Source of the DNA: a virus
Lineage: Duplodnaviria; Caudoviricetes
Reading direction: 5' to 3' (one strand)
Length of the DNA stretch: 31,646 bases
IMG/VR virus record: IMGVR_UViG_3300025698_000029
Coordinates: 1 to 31,646 of that record
Shown here: positions 1 to 31,646 of the stretch, in pieces
How the letters are laid out: every line of letters starts with the position of its first letter
How positions within the stretch are numbered: position 1 is the stretch's first letter
Notes under the pieces: model-generated
Database searches by the model: none
What the model saw: only the letters and a program-made list of their open reading frames with translations
Told to the model about the DNA's origin: nothing
Position numbers and translations under genes: made by a program

Positions 1-1
1 A

Positions 2-3000
2 TAAGAATATATTTTTTAATTCATCTTTCAGCATACCAAACAATATAATATATAATATTGATCTTATAGATTTTAATGTTGCTACAGGTGCTGAATATGT
101 TTCATAATTCTTCTTGATCATATTTAATACATAATCAGTCTGCTTAATTGCAAAAGTTTTCAGAGTGTATAAATATCTCATTCCTCATGGATGATCCCAA
201 TATGCTTTTGTCATCTCTGTCTGACTTTGTGGCTGGATCTTACATAATTGAGCATATACATATTGTCTAGTATTTTTATTCTTTCTCTTATTTTTGAAAT
301 CATCTACAAGTTTTTCTACATGTTCTTCTGAATAATATTTGTTTAGAAAGTTCATAAACTTCTTATCTCATTTTTTTGTTAATTTTACTGCTTCATCAAA
401 TGCACTATTTAATATAACTTCTTTACCATATCTATCCATTTTTGTAAATCATGTTATAGTCAATAACCTAGTCAATAACTGCTCTGTGCTAGATTTTCAC
501 ATTGGAACATCTGATGATATAGAGTGTACAACATCTGATTTTTTGAATATAGATTTTCAAAGCATAGCTCTTGTGAAATTCTTTGTGGCTGGCTTTACTC
601 AATATTCTGATGCTCCCAATCATACGTCTCATAATTGTGTCATTGTACTAGCAAAATTACATATCTTTACTGTATATGTAAGTGCTTTTAATTTTTGTAC
701 CAGTTCTGTAGTAACATCTGAACCTATACGAGATACCATATATTTAATAACAATTTCTTCTTGTCATTTATCTACCAATCCATCTTTTACATAAGACTTA
801 ACTTTTTTAACTACCAATGAATTTAGTTCATCTTTTGTATCCCAATTTGATTCAAGGAATTTTACCATTGTTACCTTAGAAACATATTGATTCATATATT
901 TAGACATACTTTCTCTCATGTTGAAGTAGAATTTTGCTGTCTCCTTTGTTAGAGTCTCCAAAACCCTCTTTTGAGTGAACGATAATTTTAGATCTGATCA
1001 TTCAGGTCTTGCTCATGATATAAGTGCTATCCTTAGATCTTCTTTCTCCGCATCAGACATTTTCCCCCTGATCCTCTCTACTCTTTCTACTGCATTTTCT
1101 ATGTGTCCTCGTAATTCTTTATCTGTTTTAAAGTGTTCTAATAATCATTGCCTATCTTTGATCATAGATGCCCAATAATTTTCTTTATATCAAACTTCTA
1201 TTCCAGCTTCGATAAGATCCATATATGCTTCATCAAAGAATTTTAGAGCTTTATCAAACCCTGCTGGTGCTAATCCATATGATTTTAATATCTCTTTAGA
1301 TGTCTTGAAATCTTGTCATCTTGCTGATAACCATAATTTTAAGAAATCTGCCTTTTCTCTATCTTCTAATACTCATAAGAATTCTAGAATATTCTCAGTC
1401 TTTGCTAGAGCTTTTCTAGTTCATCTTTTTAATTTCTTTGTAGGTTCTATTTTATCTTCTCTAATATCTATAGTTTCATATAATTTCATAACTTTATCTT
1501 CTTCCTCAAAATCTACTTGATCTTTGAAGTCTTGTCGTAATTTTGGAGATCTATTTTCTATAATTGTTCCTCATGGTCTAAAAGTTCATCTCATATATTG
1601 TAGAACTTCTTTCATAACCTTAAATCTACCATGTCATAAGATCATAGTAGCTTCGTCCTCATTTACTGCATTATCATCATAATATGTTTCGTTTATCTCT
1701 TTATTAGGAATCAATAATTCTTTGTTGATGAAATCTTCTGATTTACCATATCAATCTTTAAGTATCTGTGATTTTTTTAATAGATCTTTTCATCTCAATA
1801 TATTCTCTACTTCTGATATTTCATTTCATCTAGCTCTAGATTTTAGCATTGCTCAACCAAATATAGATACTCATTTCTTTTGCTGTTCTGTTAGATTTGC
1901 TCATTTAAGATCTCAAAGATTTACTCAAAATACTGTGTCAAATTCTTCTTTCTCTTTTTTTGGTAGAGATTCAAAAAATTCTGCTGTCTCTAATATATCG
2001 TTATTTAATATTGTATTTATCTCTTTTACATCCATAGGATTAAGATCCTGAGTCAATGGATCTGCATTTGCTTCTGATCTTTTTGTATATTCTTCAAATT
2101 GTTTATCGAAAGATTTTCTTGAATCTGATTTCATTTGTCTATCATCAACCATTTTATCATACATATCTACTGCTTCGTTTGCATCTAATTCAAATTCTTG
2201 TCATATAGATTCTATAAGACTTTCTTGGTCTTTTCTCCATGATTTGCTTTGTTTATCAGAGTGTGCTTTATCAACTTTCTTTCATGCAACAGTTCATATC
2301 AACTGCTCCCTAGCTTCCATTTTTTGTACTCTCTCAACATAATTATTGTATGATCTTGTGTATGGATCTGTTTGAAGTTTATAATATGTTTTAGCAGAGC
2401 TAGGTATCTTTGAGCTACTGAATCATTTTACATCTTTGAATTTTCCTTCGATCATATCATCAAATAATTGGTTGATTGATGCTCTATCAATTTTCATTGC
2501 TTGAAAGAACTCAAAAACTTGTTGAAAGAAATCCATAACTTTCTCAATAAATCAATCTACTCATGTTGATCTTTTTAATTCAAAAGCTTTTATTTGTCAT
2601 CTTCTAGCATATACTCAAAAAGATTCAGCAAGTCGCTCCTCAGCAATAAGTTGATTATCTGTATCTAAATATATCATTGCTTCTGCCAATAACTCTTTTC
2701 TTGTTTTTGTATCTGTTAATCTAAATAATCCATGAAATAACTCATGTTGTGCTGTAGTGTCAGTAATATCTTTTGCTAATGTAATTGTATTTTTGAAAAA
2801 TGATCCTAGAGCTTCCTGTCAATCATCAGTAAATATCTTGTCAGTGAATTCAGCAACAAATCAAGCATTTTTTGCTTGTTTTTCTATTAGTTTTCGCCCT
2901 TCTGTTTGTGATATTTCCTTTGCTAATGGACTCTTAAAGACATAAGCTTTGTCTACCGCTTCAAAATATTTCTCATCGTCTTTTAATTCTTTTTTCTTGT

Positions 3001-6000
3001 CTGTAGTTGATTTTTTAAATGCTACTACTGGTCATTTATCTTCTTCTTTTAGATCAAATTGTATCCATTCAGCTCAGTCTGACTCTACTATTTCTGCATC
3101 TTTTCTTGTTTTTTGTATATATGGTATTAATTTTCTATCATAGAAATCTACTACTGTTTTTTGTTCATCAGATAGGTTTTCATATTGCTCATCTCGATCT
3201 GATCATTCAGTATCTCATGATGATTGAAATTCCTCATATGCTCATTCTTTGAATACTGTAATATTTCAATCATTATTTGCTACAACCATTCAATATCACA
3301 TATTTTCAAGTGTATCTAATACTCTCATTTTTCTATCATGATCATCTTTCGTATATCTATCTTCTTCTACCCACTCCTCAAATTCATTTTGTAGATTTTC
3401 AGTTACATATTCTGATTCAGTTAAATCTCATAGATCTGTATCAGGATATTGAGCTTTCAAAAACTCTGTAGCATCATAATCGTCAAGATTCTCAAACAAA
3501 TTATCAACTTCTTCCTTTATAAATTCTTCAACAGTTGTCTCAAATGCAAACTCTGAGTCAGAAATTACTCCATATCAAGATCAATCTCAATAAACTGTTG
3601 TAACAATTACATTTCATAAATCTCATTCATGCTCATCTCATACCTCTAATCATTCAGGCATTTGTCATCCTGTTTCTAAGTATCATTGAATTTTTGCTAC
3701 TGTCTTTCAAACTGGTATTTGTACTGATTCTGCTCCTTTGCTTTTAGATTCTCTTATAAATTCTTTTACTAATCTTTCATGTCGTTTACTTTTATAATCT
3801 TCAAATTGTTGCAATTTAGTTATTTCTTCTTCTGATGCATTGTCTATATTATCCTGCTCGTTTTTAATTTCTTTCTTGAAATATATAATCTTTGCTTCTA
3901 TATTAGCTTCAACAAAATCAATTAGTTGGTCAATCGTCTTCTCAACATGAACACTTCCTTTTTGATGTTCTAAAAGATCTGATGCTAATGATCTTAATAT
4001 ATATGTCTCAACTCTTAGTTCCTTTGCAGATTCTATCATTATATTTTCTGATACCTCTCTTTCCTCTAAAGATCTATTGAATAACTGATGTTTCTCATCT
4101 ATAATCTCCTCTGCTATTTCTTTATTGTCTCTAAGCTTTTGTAATGTATCTATTTCAATATCTAATCTTTTTAATTGCTTTGTCGTTTCCTTAACATAAA
4201 ATTTTGAATCATGGAGTTTACTATCTCATTCATATCTTCTTCATTGCATTAGATCTGACTGCAACTCAATTAATCTTATCATATTATCCTCCTCTATTTC
4301 TTCTATCCTTACATGTCAAAAATATGACTCCGTATCATTTCCAAAGTGAGATCATGATGCTTTTGTTTCATATGGAGATTCTAATAGCCATGTTGTCTGA
4401 GCTTTTGTTTCATATGGAGATTCTAATAGCCATGTTGTCTGAGCTTTTGCTTCTACATATCTACCTGATTCTTTATATTCTTTGCTGTTTCCATCTATTA
4501 AATAATTATAGTCTGCAAATTTTCTAGATTCCTTTACGTTTAATGGCAATAATTTATCTTTAAATTTCTTTATAAATTCTATTTTACTAACCTTTTCTCA
4601 TTCCATAGAATCCAATATTTCTTTTGCTATCCTAATTTCAGGTCATTTATATCATCTGTTAAGCATTCACTCTAACATCTGTCTTGATACAATATCCTTT
4701 TTACTTGATGTCTTTAGATCTTCTATAAATTTTGTTGTTAGTTCTTTTTTTGAATTATCTCGTCTTTTAGTTTCTAGATCTTGGTATATTTTATCATATT
4801 CTTTATTAACATTATTATATTTATCAAAAACTTCTATCTGTCTATTTATTATATCTTTTGATCTTTTTGGTAATCTATCAAAGAAATCAAAGTCTGTTAA
4901 ATTTCTTGCAATAACCTCATTGAATTTTCATTCTTCTAATACATCAGTTAAAGTAGATATTCAAGGTCAATATCATTTCTTATCAATATTTAGAGCTTTC
5001 AGATCATCATATACAACAGAAATCTCCTCGTCTTTTACTTTATATTCATCATATAGATCTGTTCTTTTTTGTCTTTTTTCTTGATGAGTCTTCTCTAATT
5101 CTTCTTTATAATTGAATGTTTTTTCATTTGCTTCTCATTCTTTTATTTGGTATTTTTGTTCCTCTACTCTTTTTCCATCTATCTTTTTAATTGCTTCATC
5201 TCTTTTATTTTGTTTGTTTATTTGAGATTGATTTACTCATGCTTGTATAGATCATGGTAATCATATTCAGAAACTTGTTAATCATGCTTCAACAAATAGA
5301 TCCCAATTTTCTTTTAATGTACTCCAATCTCTATCTGATCACATAATTATAGCAATCGCATCTTGTAGATTTGATTGTGCTACTTCTTCTGCTCATTCAA
5401 ATCACATTGTTTCAGCTAATTGTTTTACTGCACTTAATAATGCAGGTCATGATTTTCATGTTATAGCTTTCTTTATAGTTAATGGAGATAGAGCTATTTC
5501 CATACCTTTTCATTCTATGAAAGATGATATTAATCAATACATATTTGCTAATATATCTTTTGTTCATGGATCTAGATCTTTTGTTGCTGGATCAGTATTT
5601 AGATCTTCTAACATTGAATTTGATTCTAATGGAAGAAATGCCATTCCTCATGCTGTAGGACTCTTTGTTAAAAGAGTTACAAGGACTGGTCAAATATTTT
5701 GTCATATAACTGATACAAGCTTATTTCAGACTGTGTTTATATCTCATTCATATAATGCTTTTAGCATAGATTTCTGATCTGTTTTAGATTGAAGATCATC
5801 CAATCGTGGTCTATTATCAAAAAACTTTGTTTCTTGTTCTTTTATTGCATCAACCACTGTATTTGATCATTTATTTATAAGTGATTCTACAGTTTTTTGC
5901 ATACTAGAACTTAATGAAGCATTTAATATTGATCATACAGGATTAATACTAGATCATATATATTTTCATATAATTCATCATTTTAATGAATCGGGTAAAT

Positions 6001-6496
6001 ATTTATCTATAAATCATGCTGGATCTGTAATTAGATTTCATGCAGATCTTATATTTGGTCATGCAAGTCATTTTGCAGTATCAAATCACATACGAGCTAC
6101 TGAACCTTTTAATATTTGTGCTTTTTGTTCTGCTGATCATGCTAGATTTCAATACTCTTTAAATTCTTCTTGTTTTTCTGCTCTAACTTCTTCTTGTGGT
6201 CTAGCCATATCTTGTACTGGATTCCATCGTTTATTTGTGAAAGAGTTTTTGGTTTTTTCAAAAAAGCTAGGTGCTTCTGTTATTGAAGCAAGTCCACCTC
6301 TATCCTTAGTACCTCTAACATATCATTTTCATTCAGTTCAAACTAATGATTGTTTTGGTTGTGTAGGATTAGATCATAACATAGCATTCACTCATCATTG
6401 CTGTACTTGTGATGTCTGTGTAGGTACATCATTTTCTCAATCAAAAATATCTATTACTTTATCTTTAGCTTTATTGAAGAAATCAAATAATCACAT
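2..6496 (-). CDS. Giant virion DNA-injection / large polyvalent protein (>2,160 aa, runs off window end) with a zincin-like HExxH metallopeptidase motif
   Basis: ATG at 6496 (MGLFDFFNKAK...). The track fragments 4352-4549, 3707-4039, 1925-2164 and 764-961 share this frame and are joined by TGA=Gly. Contains TTAQHELFHGLFRL...EEWLAESF (2620-2760) and HVR..ELQSD..W..FYD motifs. Not every codon was checked by hand. Confidence 0.8.
4359..4449. repeat. Exact 42-bp tandem duplication (2 copies + 7 bp), in frame
   Basis: gcttttgtttcatatggagattctaatagccatgttgtctga at 4359-4400 and 4401-4442; encodes AQTTWLLESPYETK twice. Confidence 0.95.
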
Positions 6497-6507
6497 ATAT
6501 ATTTGTT

Positions 6508-8094: not shown

Positions 8095-8097
8095 GAT

Positions 8098-8901
8098 TTA
8101 TCGGTTAGATTTTAAATATTGTACACTCAAATCTGTATAATCCTCTAATAGTTTTATTTCTCATGAGAACGTTGCTTCATATTCTGCTAACATTACGAAC
8201 TCTAGAGTATCTCATTTTTTCAGTTCCATAAACGATTCTCTATATCCTCAATTAAATTGTCTAGTCATCCTCAGATCATCTAGATATATTGTTCATGATG
8301 CTGTACATGACCCACTTACTGATCATCAATCTGAACATGATCAACTTATAGATCCTGATACATTTATTTGTATTCCTGTGTTACTTGCATACTCTTTATG
8401 GAACAATGTTTGCCCATCAGAACAGGCTATTCATAATATATATCATGTGATATGTGATACAAAATTCACTCAAAAGTTGTAGCTTACTTTATATATCCCA
8501 TCTCTTTGGATAGTAATGATGTTTCAGGTATTTTCAATAGCTGATATATTATCTGATGCATTATTTAGTGCAAATCAGAAATCATCGTATATTTGAGTTC
8601 ATGATCAACTTCTTGATTCGTCTCATCCCAGTCTCATATTTAATATATCTGCTGGTATCATTTCAATTGATTTACCTTTTGATCATACCATAACATTCCA
8701 ATTTTTTCTACCCTGATATGTTTTCATTCCTTCATTTGAAAAATCTCCCATATCGAATAATCTTAGATTATCTACTGGCTGATTCAATCATGGTGTATCT
8801 TCTTGGATTGGATCATCGAAATCATTATTGACTTCAACTGGATCATCGTAGAACCCCGTATCCACATCCATGTTAGGATTTAATTCTTCTTGTGAGGTCA
8901 T
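8098..8901 (-). CDS. Virion/tail protein with a beta-sandwich (C1q/BclA-like) C-terminal domain, 267 aa
   Basis: ATG 8901 overlaps the nozzle gene end, TAA 8098. Motif ITIQRDGIYKVSYNF resembles the C1q/BclA 'I...G.Y.V.Y' pattern. Confidence 0.55.
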
Positions 8902-10399
8902 AGTTTAAATTGAGTTCATAAAATCTTGGTGTTACTGTTTCGTCTGTTCATCTTGTTAAAAGTATTTGATACTCCATAACATTCCATTCTTTATTGAAGT
9001 CAGGATCTGTTGTTGGAAATAGATCAGCATACATCTTATCAACATCTGTTACAGTTTTTATAGTGTAGAAGTTACCAAATCATGTACTTTCTCTATCACG
9101 TCTTATTTTGATTGTTATGCTTCAAGCAGAAGCACTATCTTTAGACAATAAATATCATATTGTTGATTTTAAATTAGTTTTTCCTTCTCACATAATTCAT
9201 CAATCGTATATTCTTCAAATTAGGAATCCACTAGGTTGATATGTATTACTAATCCATTCTGTATTCGCTCTAAGTTCTCTATAAGCTCATCAAAATTGAT
9301 ATTGGCAACTTACATAAAAATAATCTCCAAATATATAACAATTATATGGATAATAATTTCACAAAAAATCATCTAGAGTCCATTCTAGTAATCAACTCCA
9401 TATTCAATCTACTTTCTTAAATGTTCGTATTCAATCTGCCATAGGACAATATAGAACTCCATCTTTAATATCCATATTATTTCATGGAGATCATATAAAT
9501 GTTGTCATATCTCATCCATCATTTGGAAGTCTAGTTCTTTGCATCTCCATCCTACTATATCATTTTATTTCGTATAATATATATTCTGTTGAATCTGCTG
9601 AATTTCTAAATAATGCATAATCTGATGTTCAATCAGTTGTTACACTTTCTAGATATAATCTATCAAAACTTACAGTTTGTACTAATCATGTATCTTCTAC
9701 ATCGAAAGTACCTTTTGCATAATGAATTTTTGTATCTAAATTATTATTTACTAGATATATTTTTAGATAATTTCCCTCCATAGTTAAACCTTTGATCTCA
9801 GAATCATCTTCAAATTCTCTTATAACTTTCCATCAAATAGGAAGTTCAGGAGTTGCTATTGGTATATATCTCCATAATTTATTATGATCAGCTACTAATA
9901 ACATTGTGTTAGAGTAGTCTAGAACTGCTGTTGCAGATCAAAATGTATGTACAGTACCACTAAATGGATCTGTATATGTTGGAGATGCTATTGGTGCTAT
10001 AGCTCATTGTCATAACGTTGTATCAAATACTGTTATATCATTTCAAAATGCCCATATATCTTCTTGAAATTTTAATACAAAATCATCTGAATCTCATGTA
10101 AGATTTCAGATTAATTGTGTTGTAGTAGGTCGTTGTGAATTATTTTGTAATAAAGCTCTTTGAAATCATCATGTCTCAATTTTTACTAGCTGTGAGTGAT
10201 TATTTCAGACATACATGAATCTTGATGTCGGATTATTTCCTGTGTCATTCGTATTTTCTAATAAAGAGCTTAGACAAATTCAGTTAGAAATATCTCTAAC
10301 ATTTACATTTCTAGCATATTGGAATTGTCCTTTGTGTCATACAAAAGGATCTTTCGACTCTCATCTATTCCATTGTTTTTCTAGATATTTTTTTGCCAT
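8873..10399 (-). CDS. Tail nozzle / DNA-stabilisation protein (P22 gp10 / T7 gp12-like position), 508 aa
   Basis: ATG 10399 (TAATG overlap with the adaptor stop) to TAA 8873. Beta-rich; N-terminal 'G..DP....GQFQYARNVNV'; directly follows the adaptor. Confidence 0.6.
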
Positions 10400-11121
10400 T
10401 ATAATCGCATAAGATTAGTTAAAACAGGATTTCTATATTGTCATGGTTGCATGTATCTATCTCATATAGCAGTTAGCATTTCTAATAATGCTTCATTCCA
10501 TTCCTCTTTATAAAACTTAGCATCAACACTTTTATTTGTTTTCTTTAATTGGTACGACATTCCTTCTAAAATTACCCATATATAATCTCGAGGTATTGAT
10601 AGAGCTGATTCTACTGTAGTCAATGCAACATCTACATTTGTTCTAGCATATCTTAATACTAATCAATTTGTAACATTTATTGTAGGTGCTGGATATATTC
10701 TTAGTTTTTTATTATCAAATCTAAAATATGGAGCATCTACTGATTGATTGTCTGTATATCGTGCAACTGGATTAGGTAGATTTCCTGCTGGCATCTCTGT
10801 AGCTTTTACTCAACTTCCTTCTCATGATGTAGTTGAATATTTAACTGTACATTCTAACAATGCCTTTAATTCAGGTATTGTAGGTACTGCTGGAGATCCT
10901 GAATCTCATAATGGAAGATCGTATTCTGTTTGACCAGCAACAAGACTAATTGTTAATCATTCATCAAAAAATCATTCCATAACAAAATGAGCTATTTGAT
11001 TTTCAGCTCTATGTAAATATCTATTGAATCGAATTAATGCTTTCGCAGGAGTAAGATCTGTTGCATTCTTTGCATTATCAAATAATCGTTCTGTAATATA
11101 ATCGTTTATTGTTCTAGCCAT
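10399..11121 (-). CDS. Head-tail adaptor protein, 240 aa
   Basis: ATG 11121 to TAA 10399. Motifs ISLVAGQTEYDLP and LRIYPAP are typical of podovirus adaptor proteins. Confidence 0.75.
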
Positions 11122-11184: not shown

Positions 11185-11185
11185 T

Positions 11186-11698: not shown

Positions 11699-12643
11699 TT
11701 AACTAAATGTATATGCTAATGTAGAAGCTGACTCAACTCTAGTCATTGCGTCTTGTTGCAATATAATAGAATTAAATGCTACTTTACAACCCACCTTTTG
11801 TCTTTGTGCCAAAGGATCTGAATCAGATGCAGATCTAGGAGTGATGTATGTTCTCAAAGCTTGCAAATCAGCAACTCCGTATGCTCCTTCTCACATTACA
11901 TAAGTTGGATAAACAGTAACTGTTGATGTGAAAGATTGAACCCATGCAGATTTTACTACTCTTACGTTGTACAACATACCAATTTCTCAGTTCATGATGT
12001 CTTTCGCATTAGCATCAGTGTATTTTTTAAGATCTAAGAAAGCTCATGCTGATGCTCCTGTTTGAAGATCGTAAATAACATTAGGATGCATAACTGCTAC
12101 GTAAGCATCTCCCATTGTAGGAGCTGATTTTGTAGACAAAAATGCGTTTGCTTTTGCTAGAAGGGTTGGAGTCATCAGGTCAGTAGCTCCCAAAGTTGCT
12201 CTAGAAGTTGCTGATCCTGCATAGATAACGTTTGTTCAGTTTGTTTCAAGATTAGCTTGGATAACTGAATCCATTACTCTAGCCATATCTTTTCCTAAAA
12301 CCTTTGCAGATTCCTTAATCATTTGGATTGGAGAAGAATCCTCTAGAATATCTGTGATAGTTGCAAATTCTCCGTATTGGTTTGCAGTTACAGATATAGT
12401 AGTAGTAGTTATATTAGTAGCAGTTGGAGTAACTCCTTCTGTCAATAATACAGATGCAGGTGTAGATATTTTTCTATCTACCTTTGTTCGAGACAAAGTG
12501 TTGTACCCTTTTTTCCATGCTGATTTTTTACCCATAGAGTAAAATCTCAAATTTGGCTCGAAGTTTTCTAATACAGTGCGGTTTAATCGAATTTGTAACA
12601 ATTGTCATGAGGTATTGACGTTTCCTTTAGTTGTCATTCCCAT
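11699..12643 (-). CDS. Major capsid protein (HK97 fold, N4-gp56-like family), 314 aa
   Basis: ATG 12643 to TAA 11699. Motifs LTEGVTP, QYG, YVAVMHP..YDL, NGEIGMLYNVRVV (TGA=Gly) and SDPLAQR..VG.K. Confidence 0.92.
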
Positions 12644-13924: not shown

Positions 13925-14510
13925 TGGTTTTAAGTTCAAGATCTAAAACTGTTAGTTGTGCATTATACAGTTTAATTTTTTCTTTATCTTGTTCAGTTTC
14001 AATAAGTTTCAATAGATTCTCCCTTTCAGTAGTTTTCATTTGTTTTAATATCTTTTCTTCTCAAAGGTCTTGATCAACATGAGCTTGTGATGTTGGAATA
14101 TCCTCGTCTGATATATCATTACTATGTATTGATCAATCAGAGTGATCTGCTTCCTCTCATGTGTATTGTCTTTTAAAGTTCCTGTAAGCTACTCAAATAT
14201 CAGAGTGTTGCAGAATTGTATCTAGATGGTTTGGTTTTACTCAATATCTTTCAACAATATCCGTTCATTTCTCTAGCTCCCGTAGTTTTACTCAATAAAA
14301 TTCTATGATTTTGTCCACTACTGCCATCATTGCTGGTTTTAAATTTGCCTGCAATACTCAGAATTCTATAAGCTTTTCTGTTGTAAGATCTATTGGATTC
14401 ATATTCTTTTCTGTTGCAAATTGAACTATAACCTTACCCCATTGTAATTTGTCTTGATGTGTTTTGGCAAAATCAGTGTAACCTGATCATTGCATTCGAT
14501 CGTTTGACAT
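13917..14510 (-). CDS. Hypothetical protein, 197 aa
   Basis: ATG 14510 preceded by the leader TTTATTATTTAAAACTACACACAC; TAA 13917. Confidence 0.75.
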
Positions 14511-15626: not shown

Positions 15627-17519
15627 TTAGTAATTATTTAAAAGTGGTTGTGGTCAATTTTGTGGTTGTTGAGATAGTGATTGTCTTGAAGCATGGTTCT
15701 GCATTGCTTGATTTGGTCATGCTTGATTCATCAATTCTTGTTGTCAGCTCTGTATATATGCCATCTTTCTCATTTCTATTGCTGACTTTGTTGCAGGTGT
15801 AGATAATGCTGATTGATAAATACAAAGATATGTGTAATGATCTTCATTAGGATCTTCTATTATCACAGGCATATTGTTATTCAATAATATAACATGATCT
15901 TTCGCATCCAATTCTTCTGGAGTATACGGACATCATTGCTCGATCTCTCTTAAACTCATTCATTGCATAGCATAAAGTTTACGTTTCATAAACCTTCTTG
16001 CAACTGGTGGAGTAGTAGGATCGTTTAAAGTCAATGTATATATTCTCTCAAAAGTAGCTAATTCTGATTTATTCTTAGACTCTAATTCTCATTTGTTTTG
16101 GATTTGTAGTCTTGGATCGTTTGCTCCTATGATATTCTTACGTGAGAATATGTCTCATGATTGTCATATACCTCTATTAAGCTCTGTATATTTCTCATCT
16201 TTAGCAGAGAAGTAGAATTTATAATAAAGATACCATAGCTCCCAAAAGTCTTTTTCTCATCGTGAGTTTATTTTGTTTCAGAGTATCAAATTAATGTTGG
16301 CATTCATCTGTGCTATCTGAGCTTCACGTGCTGTGTCTGCATTTGGATCTGCTACTCATCTAGTCAAACTACTCAATCCTGTATCATCTTGAACTTGTTG
16401 ATCTAATAATTGTGGGAAGTTATATACATCCTGAGTCATTCCTTGTACTGGCTCATTATACATCATATTTCCTATATTTGCGTTATTTTTAATATCAACA
16501 GGTATATATTGTGGTCATTGTACTCATTGCTCTAATATCTTTTTAGATTTGAAGTATATTGATTTATCTAAGAATACTTTACCTCATAATGCTTGTTTGA
16601 TGGCTTGTACTCTGATAAGATTATACATCAATGTCTTTAATTTCTGTTTATCTTCTGCTATATCGTATAGACAAATTCCTCGTGGATCTCAATCTACAGG
16701 TTCGTAGTAATTCAAAGATACAGGAATCCATTTTAGGACTTCTGTTTTTCCTTTTACCTTTCTAATCAATGGTTCTACAACTCTAACATCCAATAGTTCT
16801 GATGCTCCTCGCATGGTTACTTGTATTGGAAGTCCTTTATATCTTGAATAATGTACATAAATTACTGTATTTGATCATCATAATTCTTTTTCTAATGCTG
16901 TCATATCTCTAGGACTTGCATCTGATTCAATCTTTTCCTGCATATCAGGAGAAAGTCATGCTTCTACTTTTCATGTATTCATCCAAATATCTGAGTTTGC
17001 TTTAACTTCTTGCACTGACATAATTCTTTCAAATCCCATGTATTGGAAGTTCTCAGCTGATGTATGTCCACTTGGATCAGGATACCATGATTCAGGTGCT
17101 ACTACTTTGTAGCTAGGATTCTTATAGTCTTGACGATCATCCCATCCGTCTAATAATCTGATTCATACTCATTTTGTGAACCTATTTTTTTGATTAGTAT
17201 AATCTGCTTTTTCCATAGAAAGATTATCATAATCATACTCACATACTGATTGAAAATTACTAGCTTCAATAAAATGATACAAGTCTCTACTTGTCCATTT
17301 AATACTCAATTTGTCTTGATAATATAATGCTAATAATGAATTTGTTAGACTTCTGATAAGATTTACTTTAACTTTTTCGTCCGCAACGTTAGAAACATTA
17401 TAGAGCCATGTCCTGTCTCTCATGGTTTGTCTCTTTTGTGATGAAGCATTTTTACTGGTTGTGAACTCCGATATAGTTAGCTCTTTAATCTTTTTTAAAT
17501 CTTTTCCTTTGAATTCCAT
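15627..17519 (-). CDS. Portal protein (P22-like), 630 aa
   Basis: ATG 17519 to TAA 15627. Follows TerL; W.PDP, P.G..L.D...DKQ and TAREAQIAQMNAN motifs; Gln-rich C-terminus. Confidence 0.85.
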
Positions 17520-17580: not shown

Positions 17581-19248
17581 CTAATTTAATAAAGTTGAAT
17601 TAACGACAACTCATCAATCGCTTGGATCTTCTAAATGATTTGGTTCATTATCTGCAAAATATTCTGTAGCTGTTCTGTAGTGAGAGTTCTCATCATGTAC
17701 TGGTTTATCCTTCTCTGATGTACTTTCAGATCATTCTTTTATTTGTGGATAATGCGATTGAATTATTGCCTGTTCTCGATCATGACATTCGCTATCATAA
17801 AATACTCTATTCAACATTAATTGAGTTTTATTGATTCTTTCTCTCAATGTAGATTTTCTATTTGTTGTTAAATTTATTCACATTTCTCTCAATGCTTCTC
17901 TAATTGTCTCAGTTTGTACTGTGGTCTTAGTATCAGAATTGTATGGATCTCAGAAATGATCACTAAATCTGATCATTCTCATATACTCCATCAACTCATA
18001 GTCCTCAGTAGTATATGCTCGATTATTTCATTGATATGGTTTTCATATTACTAATCATGCAAAGTCTTTTATATGCCATCATACTCTTTCAAATGTTTTT
18101 ATCACAAATAACATTCATGTTTTATAATCCTTTTGCCATAATATAAAAGCATTTGAATCTCTACCAAAATCCCATGATCAATATGTTTTTCTCTTTATGT
18201 CATATACAAATGTTCCTTTTGATGCCATCCTTGTAAATAGTGGATAAACTGCTCATGATACTGATGTTTCATAACTTATATCTATCTCTTTTGCTAGATC
18301 TAATGTTGTTCTAGTAGCTTTCTGCATATCATACCATGCTTGTGTTTTTAGTGGATGATCACGCCAATGTAATCTGATCTTTTTACATAAATAATGTTTA
18401 TAATCTTTATGGTTGGTCATTACTTTTCAATATACGTTGTTGGTTCATTCAGGAGTTCATCAGAATATTCTGCAATCTGTAACATCCTTTGTCTTTCTAA
18501 ATGCAGTAGAGTCTCTAGTCCATAATGCAAACTCATCTAACCATACACTTTTTCTACGTCATCATGTTCAAAAGTTAGGTCATGAATCTCCTGCTATCTC
18601 TTTGTCTCAATCTTCTTTTGATGATATACTCATATATTTTGATGCCATATCGTCAGGTAGCATCCACTCAGGAAGCCTAGACAATACGTATCTATATCTT
18701 TCAAAGTTACTATCCATATTTCATTGCTCATCTACATAATCCTCTTTATATGATCATGATAATGTACTCCATCAGTGAAATAACCATCATCGTGTATATA
18801 TTCAGATCATCTGCCATGAGAATCATACGTCTCTAGTTTTCTCTACAAATACTTCTTCTCATTTCTCAATACTATTAACTATTGATAATATAAAATCGTT
18901 TTGAAATGGATATGGTATGAACGGTAGATGCGGTTTATCTAGTCTAGGATTATATGTCCATAAGAATAATGCAAAGAACATTAATGGACTCTTTTTACAT
19001 TGTTCTAAATAAAACTCTTGGAATTTTTTATCTCATTCAGCACGTCTCATTATAGATATTCTTTTTTTCAGATTGTTGTGCTGTACTTGTTTTATATATT
19101 CGTCTCTTTGTTCTGTTGAATATTTTACGTTTGATCTCCACTTCTCCAATGTTTCTTCTCTAGATAATCAAGAAAAATCTAACATTTCTTCTATCAAAAA
19201 GTTCTCAGGTACATCCATAACATTATTTAAAGTGTAATCTTGTGTCAT
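17581..19248 (-). CDS. terL: Terminase large subunit, 555 aa
   Basis: ATG 19248 to TAG 17581. Motifs PFIPYPFQ, EKTRDVGFSW (Walker A variant), VWLDEF (Walker B), GTPEG, LHWRDHP, WDFGRD and HDENSH. Confidence 0.92.
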
Positions 19249-19926
19249 TTATTTCTTTCAATTTGCAAAAAATTCTCCTAATTCCTCCATTAGGTCTTTC
19301 TCATTAAGTTCTTGTTTCTTCTTTCAATCTGATGTTGATTGTTGATCTTCTCTTAGATCAAATATACTATGCTCTGCACTTAGTAATAATTTAGCTATGC
19401 TTGAATTGTATTGTCAGGTTATACCTAGATCTTTAAGCATTCTTAGTTGGATACTCAAACATCTCTTGTACGATAGAAAAAAAGACGGATATAATAATTT
19501 ACCTTCATTTCTGTCAGTAGCCCAGTTCCTAAGTGTTCTAACATCAACTCATATTTTCATTGCAAATCACTCAAATCGTGGTGGAGCTTTTGGTCTAGTG
19601 TTGATTCTCTCCCTCATCACTCAATTTTTTCATACAAATTCTTCTGTAATATATTCTTCATAGTATCATCATTTTACATGATTCTCAAAATATTCAAGCA
19701 TCTCTTTTACATATTTAGGTTTATATTTTGAAGGCGATCATTTTCATATGTTGGTATTTACTTTAATTCATTTCTTATTATTTATTTCAATTTCTAAGAT
19801 TCTTTCGTCTCTAGATTGTTTCTTCTTAACTATTTGTTTCTTAATCTTTGTGGTTTTTGCTGTACTTGTTCACGTTTTTTTGGCACGTTTTGCTAGATCT
19901 TTCATTGTTCAAGTCTTTTTTACCAT
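19249..19926 (-). CDS. terS: Terminase small subunit (P22 gp3-like), 225 aa
   Basis: ATG 19926 to TAA 19249, abutting terL. Motifs G.PSKYKP.Y, FEGFA..IGV...TL.NW and GQYNSSIAKLLLS. Confidence 0.8.
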
Positions 19927-20177: not shown

Positions 20178-20249
20178 TTGCAGAGTGTCGAATCGAACGA
20201 CCGTAACCTCGCTTATGAGACGAGATCGAGAACCAGCACTCTCCCTGCA
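20178..20249 (-). tRNA. tRNA with CAU anticodon (Met/fMet-like or Ile2), atypical D arm
   Basis: Acceptor TGCAGGG/CTCTGCA+A; anticodon arm CTCGT-CTCATAA-GCGAG; T arm GTCG-TTCGATT-CGAC; no encoded CCA. Confidence 0.75.
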
Positions 20250-21121: not shown

Positions 21122-21388
21122 TTAATCACTTCGTGTTTGTGCCTTTACTGCTCGCATTTGTGCAGATTGTGCTTCTGTAATAGCAATACTTGCTAGTCTT
21201 TTAGTCTCTTTTCATGCTCATTCTGAATTTCTTAATGCATCCATTTTATCAATAATTGTAGCATATAGTTGTTTAAGTTTTCATACCTGATCATCTCAAC
21301 TAGGATTAAATCTTAATCAAACTGACTTTTGTCAGAAAGATAATTCAGGCATTTTTTCCACTGATGGTCATAGTCATGTAGAGTTCAT
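21122..21388 (-). CDS. Acb2/Tad1-like helical-hairpin protein (candidate anti-defence nucleotide sponge), 88 aa
   Basis: LSFGQKSVGLRFNPSGDDQVGKLKQLYATIID...KRLASIAITEAQSAQMWAVKAQTW; family assigned from recalled motif similarity only. Confidence 0.6.
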
Positions 21389-21866: not shown

Positions 21867-22676
21867 TTATTTTTTCTTTAACTCAGATAAAATCTTTTTT
21901 GATTCTACATCCCCAAATACTTTTTTAATATAATCAGCATCAGGTTTATGTTCTCCAGAGATTATACTACCTCTGAACTGCTTTTTGAACTTTGCTATAT
22001 AATCCTCTGCTTCTCAATAACATGTAGGTTTTGTCATAGCAAACTCAGGTATAATACCCATAAGTTCATTGATGATACCTTTCTGATCTTTTGAAATAGC
22101 AAATACCTCTAATTTGTCAATATTTCCTTTGGCAATTTGATCTAATTTGTCTTTAGCTGATTGCAATAACTCAGTAGTTACTGGTACTACATCATAGATC
22201 TTCTCAGGCAAATCAACCTTACCTTGCATGAAGTTATCATTACAATGATTTGATAGATCAATAGGATTCTTCAAAGATTCTCAACCAAATACTGCATGTC
22301 CGTAATTTCAAACTTTCTTGTAATCTAGATATTGGTTAGGTATATCATAAGTAAATTTACCAATACCTCGCTTTACTCCTGCTCTTTTAAATGCTCATGA
22401 TGATGTAGTCTTCTCTTTTCATTCCTTTGTGTCTCCCATATCAGATCTTCGTAATCGTTCTCCATCTACTCTAATTCAGATACTACATACAGTTTTTCCT
22501 GCAACTGTAGTAATTTTGTCTTGCCAGTTGTTTATACCAATAAGATTGTTTAATTGATCCATAGTATCTCTAGCATCAAAGTATGCTACACAGATACATT
22601 TTGTATCGTTTTTGTAAGTTGTTTGTACCATTCGTTTTACCTCAAATGGCTTAAATAAATCAGTTAATCATGTCAT
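21867..22676 (-). CDS. Rad52/Rad22-family single-strand annealing protein (Sak-like), 269 aa
   Basis: PFEVKW.VQ, AYFDARD..D.L...G..NWQD, DGEWLWRSD.G and AFKRAGVKWGIGKF.YD, reading CGA as Trp. Confidence 0.9.
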
Positions 22677-23627: not shown

Positions 23628-24119
23628 CTATTTTCATCTACCTCTATTTAATGCTTCTCTAGCTTTGTCTTTATCTATAATAGGTTTTGGACTTGTATCT
23701 ACTTCGTATTTCTTTGTGATCTTCTTTTTTGCTTTAATATATTTTGTATCTTTGCTTACAGGTATTTGTATATCTATCTCTTTCAGAAACCATTTAGGAA
23801 TCATATCAATTTCTTTTACAATACCTTGTATAATAGAAGGATTCTTAGATTGATATTTGATAAAATTCTTAATGTAAACCCAGTTCTTCTTATATACTAT
23901 TTTTCAATCTTCTTCAAACTTTTTCAATATGGATATGATCTGCCACTCTAATAACTTTGTATCTATTATCATTTCATCTATCCCTATTTCATATACTCCT
24001 GCTATATTTGTAAATGAATTCGTCAAAAGATATACAAACAATAATTTCTCTGTTGCTTTCAAACTTTTGATATATGTATCTTTTCGCAGTCTTGTTTCAA
24101 TTTGTCTTTTTGTTGCCAT
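23628..24119 (-). CDS. Phage replication initiator-like protein (N-terminal winged-helix, DnaD/replisome-organiser type), 163 aa
   Basis: RQIETRLWKD..I..L...EKLLFVYLLTN..TNIAGVYEI...NWVYIKNFIKYQ..NP; TAG 23628. Confidence 0.75.
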
Positions 24120-24484: not shown

Positions 24485-24919
24485 TTATTTGGTTAAAAGG
24501 TTATATATTAAGTCTATACATTCTTCGCTTTGGTCTTCTATTGGTCCACGTTTATTGTTCCAGTATAACATAGTTCAAGCCTCTATTCTTTCTTGCTTGC
24601 GAACACTTCATCATACATCATTCTGCTCTATCCGGTCCAGACAATCTCATATCATTACTGGGTGTCAGATTATTTTATATTTTCTATCTATTATCATAAT
24701 ATCTCCAAAGTTTCATATAACCTCTATTCAATTTTCTGTTCAATCAAATTCAAATCTTTCTGTTATAAATTCAATATATCATTCTAAAGCCTTGTTTATC
24801 ATATCTGCATTTTTATTTTTAATCTTTGATACCGATATTCTACATCAAAAACTAAGTGTCTTATCTGCTATCACTTCATAAATTTTATCTATCTTCTTTT
24901 GTTTATCTCATTTCTTCAT
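24485..24919 (-). CDS. Hypothetical phage protein, 144 aa
   Basis: ATG 24919 to TAA 24485; DKTLSFGC...IIGHPVMIGDCLD(CGG)IE...PIEDQSEECID. Confidence 0.7.
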
Positions 24920-26147: not shown

Positions 26148-26156
26148 TGTGTGTAT

Positions 26157-26687
26157 TTATTCTAAATAAAATCTTCTAGGTGCATAACTCATACATTTCT
26201 CTCAATTCTCTCAGTCAGCACGATCAGGTCAATAAAATAGAGATCCTCAATTTCTTTTTTCAAAGCAATACTTAATTTGGAATCTTCGGTCTGTATAGTA
26301 TTGATCAGGTATATCATGGAATCTATCATTCATCTGACATAGTCAATATGCATGTCATCCATCTCATACTTTATTTGGATCTCGATCATACCATTCACAT
26401 TCATTTAATACAACTTTGTTCATTCATCATAATTTATACGTTTCATTGATATATTCTTGTCTTGGATCATCTTTTGGTCGCCATGTTTTGTATAATTTCT
26501 TCTCTTTTACCAGTTCTCTTTGGACTGGTTTTTCTAAAATAACTGTTTGTACATTCGTTGTAGTAGTTACTATCATCTGTGATTCTCAATACACTAAATT
26601 CCATCGAGCGATCACTAATATGATCAAAATAAATACTAATCCTAAAATAATCTTAGTGTTCAGATTTTTCGGGTCATGTAACATCAT
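26157..26687 (-). CDS. Membrane-anchored lysozyme-like / lytic transglycosylase (SLT-type) protein, about 176 aa
   Basis: N-terminal TM IILGLVFILIILVIA; NECE..W.PNKVGDGGHAYGLCQMN matches the SLT 'E......GD.G...GL.Q' pattern; start could be 26684. Confidence 0.65.
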
Positions 26688-26991
26688 CTAATTTAGATTC
26701 TAAAGTATCCTCTGTGGATACAGGTATTTTATTCTCCCCCAAAGAGCAGTCTAATTTACTTTCTGCCATCCATTCAATAACCATCTCATCTATATCTACC
26801 TCCTTTAGTACAGTTACTAATTTGGAGTATACATGCACAGATAGTCTTTCTTCTTGGTATGCATATAGATATGTTTTATCATATCCTACATATTCCATAA
26901 CTTTTGTGCGGTTTATTTTCATAAATGGATATGCTAATTTTACTTCTGCTATAATGTTTTGTACTATAGCTATACACAGTTCTTTGTTCAT
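26653..26991 (-). CDS. Putative HTH transcriptional regulator (Cro-like), 112 aa
   Basis: Track ORF 26674-26991 extended through TGA to TAA 26653; NRTKVMEYVGYDKTYLYAYQ is HTH-like; first gene after the operator-bearing promoter. Confidence 0.5.
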
Positions 26992-27025
26992 ACAATTTAT
27001 AATGAATTAAATCTATTTCAACTCC

Positions 27026-27059
27026 AATATATTATTTGTTTCTACTAATACAAGTAGAA
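27026..27059 (-). promoter_or_regulatory. Early promoter with palindromic operator
   Basis: TTGTAT-N16-TATATT; TTCTACT-N6-AGTAGAA inverted repeat at 27040-27059. Confidence 0.7.
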
Positions 27060-27093
27060 TATTACTTTTTCTGATAACCAAAAGTTTCCATAT

Positions 27094-27132
27094 AAAGAAA
27101 AACCTACCTTCCCTTAGGAAGATAGGTCTTCA
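27094..27132 (-). terminator. Rho-independent terminator
   Basis: AGACCTATCTTCC-taag-GGAAGGTAGGTTT followed by TTCTTT. Confidence 0.8.
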
Positions 27133-27197
27133 ATCATGACTATTGTCAAATCGAAGTTTCCGCACCTATTTGATATATTAATAGGATTTAATTGCAA

Positions 27198-27231
27198 GAG
27201 AAAAAGAGCAGATATAAAATCCACTCTTTCT
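27198..27231 (-). terminator. Rho-independent terminator (end of lysis operon or of small RNA 1)
   Basis: AGAAAGAGTGGAT-tttat-ATCTGCTCTTTTT-CTC with G.U pairs on the minus strand. Confidence 0.7.
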
Positions 27232-27294
27232 AGATGTAACACCTCCTTTTCTATTAGTTAATACTAATAATAGTTCAATATACGAACTAATTAC

Positions 27295-27322
27295 AATATA
27301 TTAGTCTAATCTTTAATTGCAA
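27295..27322 (-). promoter_or_regulatory. Putative promoter overlapping the peptidase 3' end
   Basis: TTGCAA-N16-TATATT; the 15-nt tttaattgcaagaga occurs at both 27312-27326 and 27187-27201. Confidence 0.5.
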
Positions 27323-28109
27323 GAGATCTATAAATCATCACTGCTGTCTCTTTTCTAGTAGCAGGCTCATTTGGTCTTTCTCAATTAGTGATTCCAGCTT
27401 CGATAGCTTTTTGGAACTCTCTATCAAAACTTAATCTACTAATTATTCATGTATCATCTTTATCTATTATAACATTTTTAGAGAACATTTTATCAAAGTA
27501 TTCATATGGTACAGTGAAATATCATCCATCTCATCGATCTTCTCAGAAAGAATTAGGACATGTAAATCATCTGTTATTATATCAATCAATTATAAATGCA
27601 TGTCATCCTCAATTTCATAGCTCTGCTACTCATGAAGCTCATGATTTTCTCCAATCAAATTTAGATGATCAGGTATATATTATGAATCAGTTATCTATAG
27701 CATTCTTACATCATTCCATAGTATCCGCTCTCATATATCCTTCAATCCAATTGTTTTTAATAAAGAATTTCATCATCTTTTGGAGTGTAGATCCTGTATT
27801 TGGTCGTCATCTAGTATTTTGATAAACGTGCCATCTATACATTGGATTTAGCTGTTTGAATTCTAGATCTTTTTCTAGATATTCTGCTACGTTGTTTGCA
27901 TTATATGCACTACATAATGAATATTCTGTACATGCTTTATATGTACTTGTTTGATCAAATTGATCTCGTATCTTCATTACCTTTCTATCTCGAATAGGCT
28001 TTTGTGATTTTCACATTCAATATTCTTTCATATATAGATCCTCATATGAATAATCTCTTGAATCTGCTTGATCTACTGCATCTAAATACAGTTCTAGGTT
28101 TTCTAACAT
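27306..28109 (-). CDS. Papain-like (C1) cysteine peptidase with a C-terminal SLH-like domain; putative endolysin, 267 aa
   Basis: DQ......AC, GGHAFIIDGY, NSFGEDWGDGGYF.VPY; C-terminal GITNGERPNEPATRKETAVMIYR; directly after the holin. Confidence 0.85.
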
Positions 28110-28135
28110 TTCGTGTGGTTTTTAGAAAATTAAAA

Positions 28136-28363
28136 TTATTTAATTTTGTGGCTTGCCTTAAATCTTCCTATAATAACAATTATTGCTGATGCAGTTGTTA
28201 CCATACTCATAATTGCTTGCATAATCTGTGCTTGGAATTCTGCTGAAATAGATAGATCAGGATTTCCTGTTACTGTTGCAACAAAACCCATTATACTAAC
28301 CAATCCTGCTACAACTCCTGCCCATACTGTTTTACTTTTCCATCGGTTTTTATTAGTTTTCAT
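28136..28363 (-). CDS. Holin-like protein, 75 aa, two TM helices
   Basis: KNWWKSKTVWAGVVAGLVS...IVIIGRFKA (K.W..SKT.W and GR.KA pattern); adjacent to the peptidase. Confidence 0.75.
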   Translation of the reverse strand: MKTNKNRWKSKTVWAGVVAGLVSIMGFVATVTGNPDLSISAEFQAQIMQAIMSMVTTASAIIVIIGRFKASHKIK

Positions 28364-28388
28364 GTGTAATTATATCAAAGATTAAAAA

Positions 28389-28658
28389 TTATACTTTTGG
28401 ATTTGCATCTAATATTTTAACTAATTCGTGTCTTTTTGTACAATCTGGGAATCTTTTACATCCCAAACATTCACGTATAAGTCTATGTGTTTCTACTATT
28501 ACATCTTCTGTAGATGTTCACATAAGCATATTGAAATCGCCTACTGTTTCTACATCAAAGTTTTCGCATCATTTATTCATATTATTTTCATCGCTATTAA
28601 AATCTTTAGGACTGTAGTGTTTACTTAATCATGGACTAAAATGCATCTTTTCTGACAT
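28389..28658 (-). CDS. Hypothetical protein, 89 aa, with Cys cluster (CLGC....C)
   Basis: TAATG-coupled start at 28658; TAA 28389. Confidence 0.6.
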
Positions 28659-28909
28659 TATCTTTTCTTAGCTAGATCAACTAGGAATTCAACTCATGCA
28701 CTTGTTTCAATAATAGTTTTTGAAATTTCCTTAACTTCTAGAGTTAATTCTTTTCTTTCAATAGATTCTTTTTCAATATTAATTGCATTTACTGTTACCT
28801 GTCTTGATAATGATCAAGCCTGAACTCCGTAGAATATGGCTCATCAAACAACAGTTACAAGTATTGAAATGATCCCTAATGCATTGAATTTTCTTTTTCT
28901 TTCTGTCAT
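28658..28909 (-). CDS. Single-TM coiled-coil membrane protein of the lysis module, 83 aa
   Basis: ALGIISILVTVVGGAIFYGV TM followed by a coiled coil. Confidence 0.65.
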
Positions 28910-28936
28910 TGTTATGAAAGATATAAAATGAGTTTC

Positions 28937-29119
28937 TTATTCTTTGTCTAATATCTTGATAGCTCTTTTTGCTGTTTTTGCAAGTTGTAGTTTTGGCATC
29001 TTTCTTTTTCATAGTTCTTTGTTTACTTTATCTAATTCAACAGATGCTGTATCTATAGTATCTATTGCTGTTGCCCCTAGAGAATTCAATTCTGCTAGAG
29101 GAGTGTCTGTATATTTCAT
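28937..29119 (-). CDS. Hypothetical protein, 60 aa
   Basis: ATG 29119 to TAA 28937. Confidence 0.6.
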
Positions 29120-29144
29120 AATGATAGATCTTTAATAATATAAA

Positions 29145-29810
29145 TTAAGAGTATACTGATAATATGTTTACATATACTGGTACTGCTAATGTGTCAGCAT
29201 TTCATCCTGTTGTGTTTCTATATACCATAGCAGATACTGTATCTCATGGTCCATAACCTGTTCCATCAAATACAAATTCATGTTTCTCAGCTTCAAAATC
29301 TGTATGTATTCAAGCTGAGAATACTGTTTCATCAAATTCAGATGGTCAACCGTCTCATTCATACCCATCTGTATCATTTACCCTTTGTAGTCCTAACCCT
29401 CGAAGTATATCTCATCCTGATGCACTAGAATATGTGAAATGGATCTCAACTTTAATATCTCTACCTGCTATATAGTTTTTTGGTAGCTCAAAGTTTGTGA
29501 AAGCCATAGCATTTATATCATTTGCATCATCGAATCATAAGAAAGATCGTCTTCCACTCAATGAAGCTCATGTCGCCGCCGTTGTGGTTATCCCGTTTAC
29601 GGTGCTGGCTCATCAAGGCATATTATAAGCATATGCTTGATATAATGTTTGGTATGTTGTATCTAATATTAGCTCCTCTCTTTTTGCTCCATCTCAGATC
29701 TTATATAATAGATCATCTGATTTTGCGTATGTTTTAACATATCAAGATTGAGCATTTGCTAGAGCTACTGCATTTGCTAGTAATTCTAGTTCATTGGTTC
29801 TTTGTCCCAT
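29145..29810 (-). CDS. Putative virion structural (beta-sandwich) protein, 221 aa
   Basis: Fully hand-translated; FELPKNY..G..IKVEIHF......GDILWGL...VYR...DTL pattern; follows the tail fibre. Confidence 0.65.
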
Positions 29811-29821
29811 TTTTTAAAAGA

Positions 29822-31645
29822 TTATTTTGTAAAAGTTGAAGCAGTTTCTCGAGTAGATCACGATAGGAATTGAACATCTAACTCTCAGCTAATATTTATT
29901 GCAAATTGTCGTGAGCTTCCATTATCTGTCATCCTCATAACTCAACCAGTCAATTCCATTATTGGAGTTTCAATTGTTATATCTGTATTTGCACTCATAT
30001 ATATTTCATCTGTATCAGGTGTTGGTACTCATCACATACTATATCACATGTATATAGGTAGATTTCCTCAATCTAATAGTAATCAAACATTGTTTCTAGC
30101 TTGCACTGATACTTGATCACTTCATATTGCTACAACTCATGATGTTACCAATAATCTTTCTCAGAATCCTACACTTGCAACTTTAAGATTAATCTCTGTA
30201 TTTGCTCATATATTTACTTCATCTGTATCTGGTACTGTTTGACTGTCATAATAACCAATAAATACCGGTCATTCTTTTGATGATATATACACTCATTCAG
30301 CTCACGGACTATCTGCGATTGCTATATAACTATCGTTTATACTTGATTGTATTAGTGTTGGAGACATAAGTATTTCAGCTCATTGTGTTGTCAAAGTTAC
30401 TCAACTTTGCCCTCTAACTGTTGCTATTTTTGTCGTAGTATCATATCCTATTTCGTTTCTAGTTGCTGGTAGTCATGGAGTATACATAGCAAATCAATTG
30501 CTATTGAAAAACATTTCTCCAGCTCATCCTGCATAAGAGAAAGCTCAATTAGACATTGATAATAGATCACTAGCTCAATTCAAAGATACTTTTCGATCTT
30601 TATTTAGAACATCCATCTCCATATAAGATTCATCAAATCATGCATCGTATATATCTCAAATTATTATTTCGTTTGCAGTATCTCATACTGTTATATTATC
30701 TGATGAGTTGATAGATACATCATCTGTTGTTACTGTTACAAAAGTGTTTGCATCAGTTGAAGATTTAATCCTTGTATATGTACTATCTATCAAAGTATTT
30801 AATCATCATGTTATAGTAAGACTGTTTCCTCCTGCACTTATTGTTCTATCAGAAGTTAAAGTTCAATCAATATTATATATATTTTCGTCAGCAGGTACTT
30901 CTGCTAAAGTTATATAATTTAAAGGATTTGTTGTATAGTAATCTCAACTGTTTGCTAACAATAAGTAAGGAGATAGAGAACTAGCAATGTTTGCATCATA
31001 ATAAGTTCAGCTATCTATAGCAAAGTTAGTATCGTAGTAATTTCCACTATTTGCTATTGTTAAGTATGGCAATAATGAACTTGCTATAGTATTATTATAA
31101 TAAGTTCAACTATCTGCTACTAATAGATAATCAGCAGAAACTGCACTCCATACTGGATCTGTTTCTGTTGTTAAATATCATAATCAATATACGAATCCAC
31201 TTATTGCATTTTGTGTTGCTCCAAGTGTTGTACTATTTGCAACAGTGCTTGCTAAAATATTTACATCATTTATTCTATATTCTGCTCAGTTTGTTACATT
31301 TAAGTTATCTGTTTCTATATCAAAACTATCATTAGCATTGTCGAAAGTTCGTCAATGTTGATTGTCTCAACTCAATAAAGTACCACCTCAATTTGCAGTT
31401 ATATCAGTCGCCCCTGTTATTACTCACAAGAAGATATTTTTATCTTCTACATCTAAATTTGTTGAATTTATATATGTTGCAGTTCCATTGAAAAATGTGT
31501 TTCAATTAAATACTGTATTGTCGGAAAAAGTCTTTATTCAATTTATTTCTTCGTCTCATTCTAGATGTACATAGAATCAACTTGCTGTCTCAATTTCTCA
31601 ATCTACATAATCTTTGTTTACTAAAGATAATCCTGTATAAAAAGA
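29822..31645 (-). CDS. Tail fibre protein (5'-truncated, at least 607 aa)
   Basis: VNKDYVD, VHLEGDEEINGIKTF, STNLDVEDKNIFLG..TDITANGGG and internal repeats; TAA 29822. Confidence 0.8.
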
Positions 31646-31646
31646 A

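Follow-up and report, generated by a model that had tools for sequence, protein, structure and literature searches.

A tailed phage whose genome places TGA at glycine positions, and CGA and CGG at tryptophan positions, in all classes of its genes very probably relies on the transfer RNAs (tRNAs) of an Absconditabacterales-type host to read these codons. The phage is represented here by a stretch of 31,646 nucleotides from the IMG/VR virus record IMGVR_UViG_3300025698_000029, referred to below as the window. A preliminary description, made from the letters alone, had proposed that CGA, and probably CGG, is read as tryptophan on top of the reading of UGA as glycine, and this proposal is supported by four tests with internal controls. 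Judging by its genes for capsid, portal, adaptor, both terminase subunits, and Rad52/Erf-like, DnaD-like, Acb2/Tad1, papain-like and holin proteins, the source of the window is a tailed phage of the Caudoviricetes.

Positions 1-20000 and 26000-31646 of the window match, with 100% identity, a complete record of 39,984 bp, G001, which has direct terminal repeats and whose 8.3 kb beyond the window are denoted L148. The long genes are all on the minus strand, and their frames stay open only when TGA codes for an amino acid. Open reading frames cover 21% of the window under translation table 11 and 87% when TGA is read through; TAG read-through was dismissed, as the coverage is 33%. The 37 genes comprise 9,986 codons, including 453 TGA, 79 TGG, 57 CGA and 2 CGG, along with 302 AGA, 33 AGG, 19 CGT and 4 CGC. 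CGA and CGG (together, CGR) account for 59 of the 138 tryptophan codons. As the preliminary description anticipated, table 25 also mistranslates the genome, with 59 wrong residues in the window. Furthermore, the nine coordinates that it cited all carry the expected codon in frame on the minus strand, namely CGA, or CGG at 24632-34.

Residues aligned with CGA and CGG

The meaning of each codon was examined at the DNA level by aligning the genes of the window to 147 terminase-anchored loci, along with two loci of the peptidase and six whole records, with TGA, CGA and CGG masked and hits of at least 90% identity dropped. Relatives cover 27 of the 57 CGA sites. Among the 415 aligned cells, tryptophan occupies 201, phenylalanine or tyrosine 132 and arginine 3. 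The most frequent residue per covered site is tryptophan at 14 sites, tyrosine or phenylalanine at 5, another residue that is not arginine at 6 and arginine at none; the remaining 2 align only with masked codons. Control codons behave as expected from their standard meaning: TGG aligns with tryptophan in 939 of 1,544 cells and with arginine in 1, AGA with arginine in 1,687 of 3,490 and with tryptophan in 21, and CGT with arginine in 180 of 397 and with tryptophan in 9. Thus, by the residue profiles of its 27 covered sites, CGA resembles TGG and not AGA or CGT.

A likelihood call over the 60 codons with data gives a similar result, as the margin exceeds 2 for only three departures from table 11, namely TGA to glycine, CGA to tryptophan and CGG to tryptophan. 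The glycine call for TGA is based on 128 sites and has a margin of 173, and TCC (1 site) and GTC (5 sites) differ from table 11 by about 1. CGT, CGC, AGA and AGG are still arginine according to both likelihood and alignment, with CGC resting on one site and AGG having a margin of 8.6, in agreement with the earlier proposal that CGT and CGC fit arginine.

The codons exchanged among relatives are equally informative. In 417 pairs of relatives that read TGA as glycine, at 70-99.5% identity, the 536 differences at CGA are TGG in 448 cases, CGG in 61 and AGA, AGG, CGT or CGC in none; these counts are of aligned cells and not of independent events. In 141 standard-code pairs, 252 of 386 CGA differences involve AGA, AGG, CGT or CGC, and none involves TGG. 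Of the 210 cells in which CGG differs among relatives, 205 have TGG or CGA. CGA and TGG are two base changes apart, and CGG, which lies between them, is exchanged with either.

Individual sites tell the same story in genes of diverse function. In the DNA relatives, capsid site 12587-89 aligns with tryptophan in 11 of 16 and site 12488-90 in 14 of 16, the other 2 having CGA; tail-region site 9425-27 has tryptophan in 8 of 10, three of the five CGA codons of the adaptor gene are in columns with a tryptophan majority, and papain-like site 27534-36 faces tryptophan in both relatives. For the terminase large subunit (TerL), 172 homologues were found and 120 examined, of which 35 are standard-code and 85 are translated with TGA as tryptophan. 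Raw tryptophan counts in database homologues were set aside as misleading, since recoded homologues carry TGA translated as tryptophan. At 18790-92, tryptophan is present in 72 of 109 homologues overall and in 30 of the 35 standard-code ones, where arginine is absent; over the three TerL CGA columns, the standard-code homologues have phenylalanine, tryptophan or tyrosine in 92% of 105 cells and no arginine. At the TGG columns of the window's terminase, arginine is found in 0 of 418 standard-code cells versus 222 of 1,077 TGA-recoded cells. In standard-code cultured phages, tryptophan is found in four of five Rad52 homologues at three CGA sites (including 22455-57, and 22368-70, where the fifth has phenylalanine), in three of three Acb2-like homologues at 21152-54 and in one of one at the other Acb2-like site. 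Replication protein site 24084-86 (one of one) and, among weak homologues, giant-protein site 2633-35 (two of two) also align with tryptophan. Both CGG codons align with tryptophan as well. The evidence at 24632-34, previously described as weak, is stronger than claimed, as 104 protein homologues have tryptophan in 65, tyrosine in 24, phenylalanine in 4 and arginine in 4, and the CGG at 14280-82, which had not been cited, is TGG in 10 of 10 relatives.

Reading CGA as tryptophan raises 20 of 32 Pfam and PHROG family scores and leaves 4 unchanged. For instance, the score of the Rad52/Erf-like protein against phrog_1097 goes from 77 to 97.1 bits, that of the DnaD-like protein against phrog_1701 from 46.5 to 54.4 bits and that of the Acb2/Tad1 protein against PF24729 from 27.8 to 31.5 bits. 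A PDB search with the peptidase offers weak support: 24 sequences are matched at E of at most 1 with tryptophan and 4 with arginine, and the best match scores 22.3 versus 22.6 and has valine at the cited site.

The context and frequency of the tryptophan codons also vary. In all genes of the window, the base that follows is A after 41 of 79 TGG and 13 of 57 CGA codons (p = 0.0007), and the relatives show a similar bias (117 of 311 and 24 of 138, respectively); CGAA is not depleted genome-wide. In eight aligned genes of 18 relatives with TGA as glycine, the CGR share of tryptophan codons ranges from 0.07 to 0.62, the window having 0.34. Possibly, this range tracks the progress of each host in using the new codons.

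Distribution of the code among related phages

Terminase sequences place this code in a group of phages. Among 97 non-redundant terminase loci, 24 have TGA as glycine, and CGR is called as tryptophan in 21 of these and as arginine in 2, with no call for 1. The 73 loci without TGA as glycine give arginine for CGR in 63, no call in 10 and tryptophan in none. Of the whole records, G002, G003, G005 and G007 have CGA as tryptophan, and G006 leans to aromatic residues on 14 cells. G004 (locus L029), a complete 47-kb relative, has TGA as glycine and CGA as arginine (arginine in 204 and tryptophan in 1 of 766 cells); its arginine call is solid, and it is a plain code-25 phage that adjoins the clade with CGR as tryptophan and likely infects a Gracilibacteria-like host. 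L109 has TGA as glycine and almost no CGA, and its tryptophan call comes from weak CGG columns. A distant terminase lineage with TGA as glycine, at about 30% identity, consists of L129:478-1990, where CGR is tryptophan, and L131, whose arginine call is uninformative, as it has one CGG and no CGA in 6,329 codons.

In a quick tree of the 71 of 97 rows with at least 330 amino acids, built without a root test, the window belongs to an 18-row group with CGR as tryptophan (Shimodaira-Hasegawa-like approximate likelihood ratio test, 95), which is sister to L029 and L109 (96 together). All of these are nested among standard-code rows, and L129 and L131 lie far off. A tentative and somewhat doubtful history is that a single phage lineage climbed through the successive codes of its hosts, in the presumed order of standard code, G004, L109 and the 18-member clade with the full code, with L129 and L131 arriving separately. 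If so, phages would have repeatedly and naturally crossed the "genetic firewall" of a reassigned sense codon, and codon meaning would mark hosts within Patescibacteria.

In addition, a 2.3-kb terminase contig with TGA as glycine and CGA as tryptophan (L081:1-2340) occurs in a metagenome-assembled genome of Neomarinimicrobiota and is likely a misbinned phage fragment.

Decoding, alternatives and known codes

No UCG, CCG or UCA tRNA was found in the complete G001 by ARAGORN, at default or relaxed settings, or by Rfam RF00005, and none was found in six whole related records. The only default ARAGORN call, a degenerate tRNA-like gene with anticodon CAT, is missed by RF00005 and cannot decode CGA, CGG or TGA. 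The relaxed setting adds a single Ile-like call of 99 nt, which overlaps the capsid gene but runs on the opposite strand and is likely spurious. As G001 lacks a matching tRNA, we infer that decoding depends on the host. In the lists of reassignments given by PMC8629427 and by two 2026 preprints, the combination of UGA as glycine with CGA as tryptophan appears for Absconditabacteria only, and the code itself therefore points to an Absconditabacterales-type host. By analogy with the predictions of PMC8629427, host tRNA(UCG) and tRNA(CCG) with tryptophan identity, together with a tRNA-Gly(UCA), would decode the phage codons, and the ribosome would insert tryptophan at CGA and CGG. The likely history is one of passive conformity: after entry into such a host, CGR codons for arginine would have been purged, and CGA and CGG would then have re-entered as synonyms of TGG.

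Several observations weigh against tryptophan at CGA or against such a host, in addition to the counting of cells mentioned above. To begin with, 30 of the 57 CGA sites lack a DNA-level relative. Some sites do not favour tryptophan: the site at 19576-78 (residue 117) of the terminase small subunit (TerS) aligns with methionine in 3 and threonine in 2 homologues and is uninformative, giant-protein site 1109-11 (residue 1796) aligns with glutamine in 2, arginine in 1 and leucine in 1, and Rad52 site 22449-51 (residue 76) has neither tryptophan nor arginine in any of five. Eight of the 32 family scores fall, chiefly those of the holin, which drops from 21.4 to 17.4 in Pfam and from 23.4 to 17.1 for phrog_297, while two other PHROGs rise; TerL falls from 28.5 to 26.5 for phrog_10250. 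The earlier claim that CGA occupies invariant tryptophan positions holds for most of the sites it cited, and fails for Rad52 22449-51 and for the holin, where the scores are mixed. In protein-only sets, many recoded homologues have arginine at CGA columns; this arginine probably reflects mistranslated CGR codons in the homologues themselves, in line with the DNA loci. Moreover, a TerL scan of species genomes recovered 5 loci, none labelled Absconditabacteria, and gave no prophage link to such a host, and PMC13695967 describes the cellular arginine reassignments as experimentally unverified.

Among other explanations, it is unlikely that the host decodes CGA and CGG ambiguously, mostly as tryptophan and partly as arginine. 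A minority misreading is not measurable from sequence, only experiments exclude ambiguity according to PMC8629427, and a few CGA sites lie in polar columns. Nevertheless, none of the 536 differences among close relatives exchanges CGA for another arginine codon, and CGA occupies columns that are tryptophan in 35 of 35 standard-code terminases, which argues for reliable tryptophan insertion.

Less probable still is a switch driven by the phage, in which the host uses code 11 or plain code 25 and a tRNA supplied by the phage recodes the late genes, as in stop-recoded gut phages. Such switches have been described for stop codons (PMC10746230), the Absconditicoccaceae phage RSA-ATP1 carries a tRNA-Gly(TCA) (PMC13059738), and the host of the present phage is a predicted one. 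Yet the complete genome has no relevant tRNA, even at the relaxed ARAGORN threshold, and genes for replication and recombination use the recoded codons as often as structural genes do. CGR makes up 39 of 92 tryptophan codons in morphogenesis genes versus 20 of 46 in other genes (p = 1.0), and this equal share indicates that there is no late-gene switch.

C-to-U editing of codons in RNA occurs in plant mitochondria. Such editing could create tryptophan codons with the code unchanged, as CGG would become UGG, but CGA would become UGA, which is glycine here, and the conserved columns under CGA in the loci with TGA as glycine contain tryptophan (69), phenylalanine (16) and tyrosine (7), with glycine absent from the eight commonest residues; editing is therefore highly improbable. 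Finally, the notion that CGA remains arginine, and that its tryptophan columns reflect chance or sequencing error, is already refuted, for although tryptophan is not favoured at the sites in the holin and TerS, arginine holds almost none of the aligned cells, the identical pipeline returns arginine for CGA in standard-code relatives and in G004, and four other assemblies carry identical CGA codons, which rules out a sequencing artefact.

The reading of CGA and CGG as tryptophan on top of UGA as glycine matches, as the preliminary description stated, a code already reported for cells. Shulgina and Eddy (2021; PMC8629427) predict it in Absconditabacteria (SR1) and describe CGG as variable in Gracilibacteria; PMC13092985 and two 2026 bioRxiv preprints restate the cellular code. 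The phage shares with these bacteria the three reassignments, AGA as the main arginine codon, CGT and CGC as arginine, a low guanine-plus-cytosine content (about 0.30) and a CGG that is rarer than CGA. It differs in that its genome is viral and lacks the decoding tRNAs, and, with all genes counted, has 57 CGA per 10,000 codons, versus fewer than 37 in the Pfam-aligned codons of PMC8629427, a comparison with different denominators.

Among phages, the earlier view that sense-reassigned genomes are rarely documented was overstated, as PMC8629427 reports AGG as methionine, without a tRNA, in two phage assemblies of reassigned Bacilli. Those phages likewise conform to a sense-codon reassignment of the host with no tRNA of their own, but the codon, amino acid and host are different, and two assemblies compare with at least 21 non-redundant loci here, plus a stop reassignment. 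The code-25 phages of Absconditabacteria and Gracilibacteria (Liu et al. 2023, PMC10746230; RSA-ATP1, PMC13059738) share the dense in-frame TGA and the predicted Absconditabacteria hosts, and RSA-ATP1 (39 kb) is similar in size to G001, which, unlike it, has no tRNA-Gly(TCA). Both studies apply plain table 25, and "CGA" appears 0 times in their main texts. A full-text literature search, with most subscription journals and supplements outside its scope, found no report of a phage with CGR as tryptophan. Overall, it is well supported by the sequences that a known code, so far cellular and predicted, would here have a new class of carrier and be spread over a phage clade.

This has several consequences. 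For a sense-codon reassignment so far only predicted in bacteria, phage genes would supply support that does not depend on the cellular genes behind the prediction. The abundant capsid protein is the best target for mass spectrometry, as its two diagnostic CGA sites are readable by metaproteomics. The current protein collection mistranslates the clade, with TGA as tryptophan and arginine at conserved tryptophan columns. The meaning of CGA also splits phages with TGA as glycine between likely Absconditabacterales and likely Gracilibacteria-like hosts, where spacers are scarce. In a broader sense, these phages would be a natural case of viral adaptation to a refactored sense code, which synthetic biology erects as a barrier to make cells resistant to viruses.

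Genes of the window

Features of the window, with positions in the 31,646-nucleotide stretch
Feature	Positions	Strand	Remarks
Giant virion-associated protein, likely ejection or internal	2..6496	-	Role inferred from position; 3' end beyond window, continues in G001; 108 TGA, 9 CGA
Tail-region protein	8873..10399	-	Inferred from position; CGA 9425-27
SU10-like adaptor protein	10399..11121	-	Pfam PF24175; 5 CGA
Major capsid protein	11699..12643	-	phrog_1357, E 6.7e-50; CGA 12587-89 and 12488-90
CGG codon in gene 13917-14510	14280..14282	-	TGG in aligned relatives
Portal protein	15627..17519	-	PF23899; 3 CGA in Trp/Tyr/Phe columns
Terminase large subunit (TerL)	17581..19248	-	30 TGA; 3 CGA (18790-92, 18019-21, 17776-78)
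Terminase small subunit (TerS)	19249..19926	-	Pfam and PHROG matches; CGA 19576-78
tRNA-like gene, anticodon CAT, degenerate	20178..20249	-	ARAGORN
Acb2/Tad1 hairpin-domain protein	21122..21388	-	PF24729, above cut-off; 2 CGA
Rad52/Erf-like single-strand annealing protein	21867..22676	-	phrog_1097; 4 CGA
DnaD-like replication protein	23628..24119	-	phrog_1701; CGA 24084-86
Second CGG codon (gene 24485-24919)	24632..24634	-	Trp/Tyr column; protein homologues
Papain-like cysteine peptidase	27306..28109	-	4 CGA in aromatic columns
Holin-like protein	28136..28363	-	Pfam and PHROG matches; single CGA, not diagnostic

Matches to cultured phages are distant, at about 28-37% identity among the 15 matches listed of 131 and of 41. 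Pfam gave no match for the proteins of 24485-24919 and 26157-26687 or for 11 of their homologues. The Acb2/Tad1 protein shares 61% identity with a protein of an Enterobacter phage, and its gene suggests that the host may possess cyclic-nucleotide immunity.

Some repeats were also observed. In the gene of the giant protein, a unit of 42 bp is tandemly duplicated at 4359-4453 (2.3 copies, 98%), in the window as in G001, and the C-terminus of the protein (L148:1840-1907) is a run of Asp-Leu dipeptides. Immediately upstream of the replication gene, at 24126-24155, a 5-bp AT-rich unit occurs in six copies and may be an origin or promoter element.

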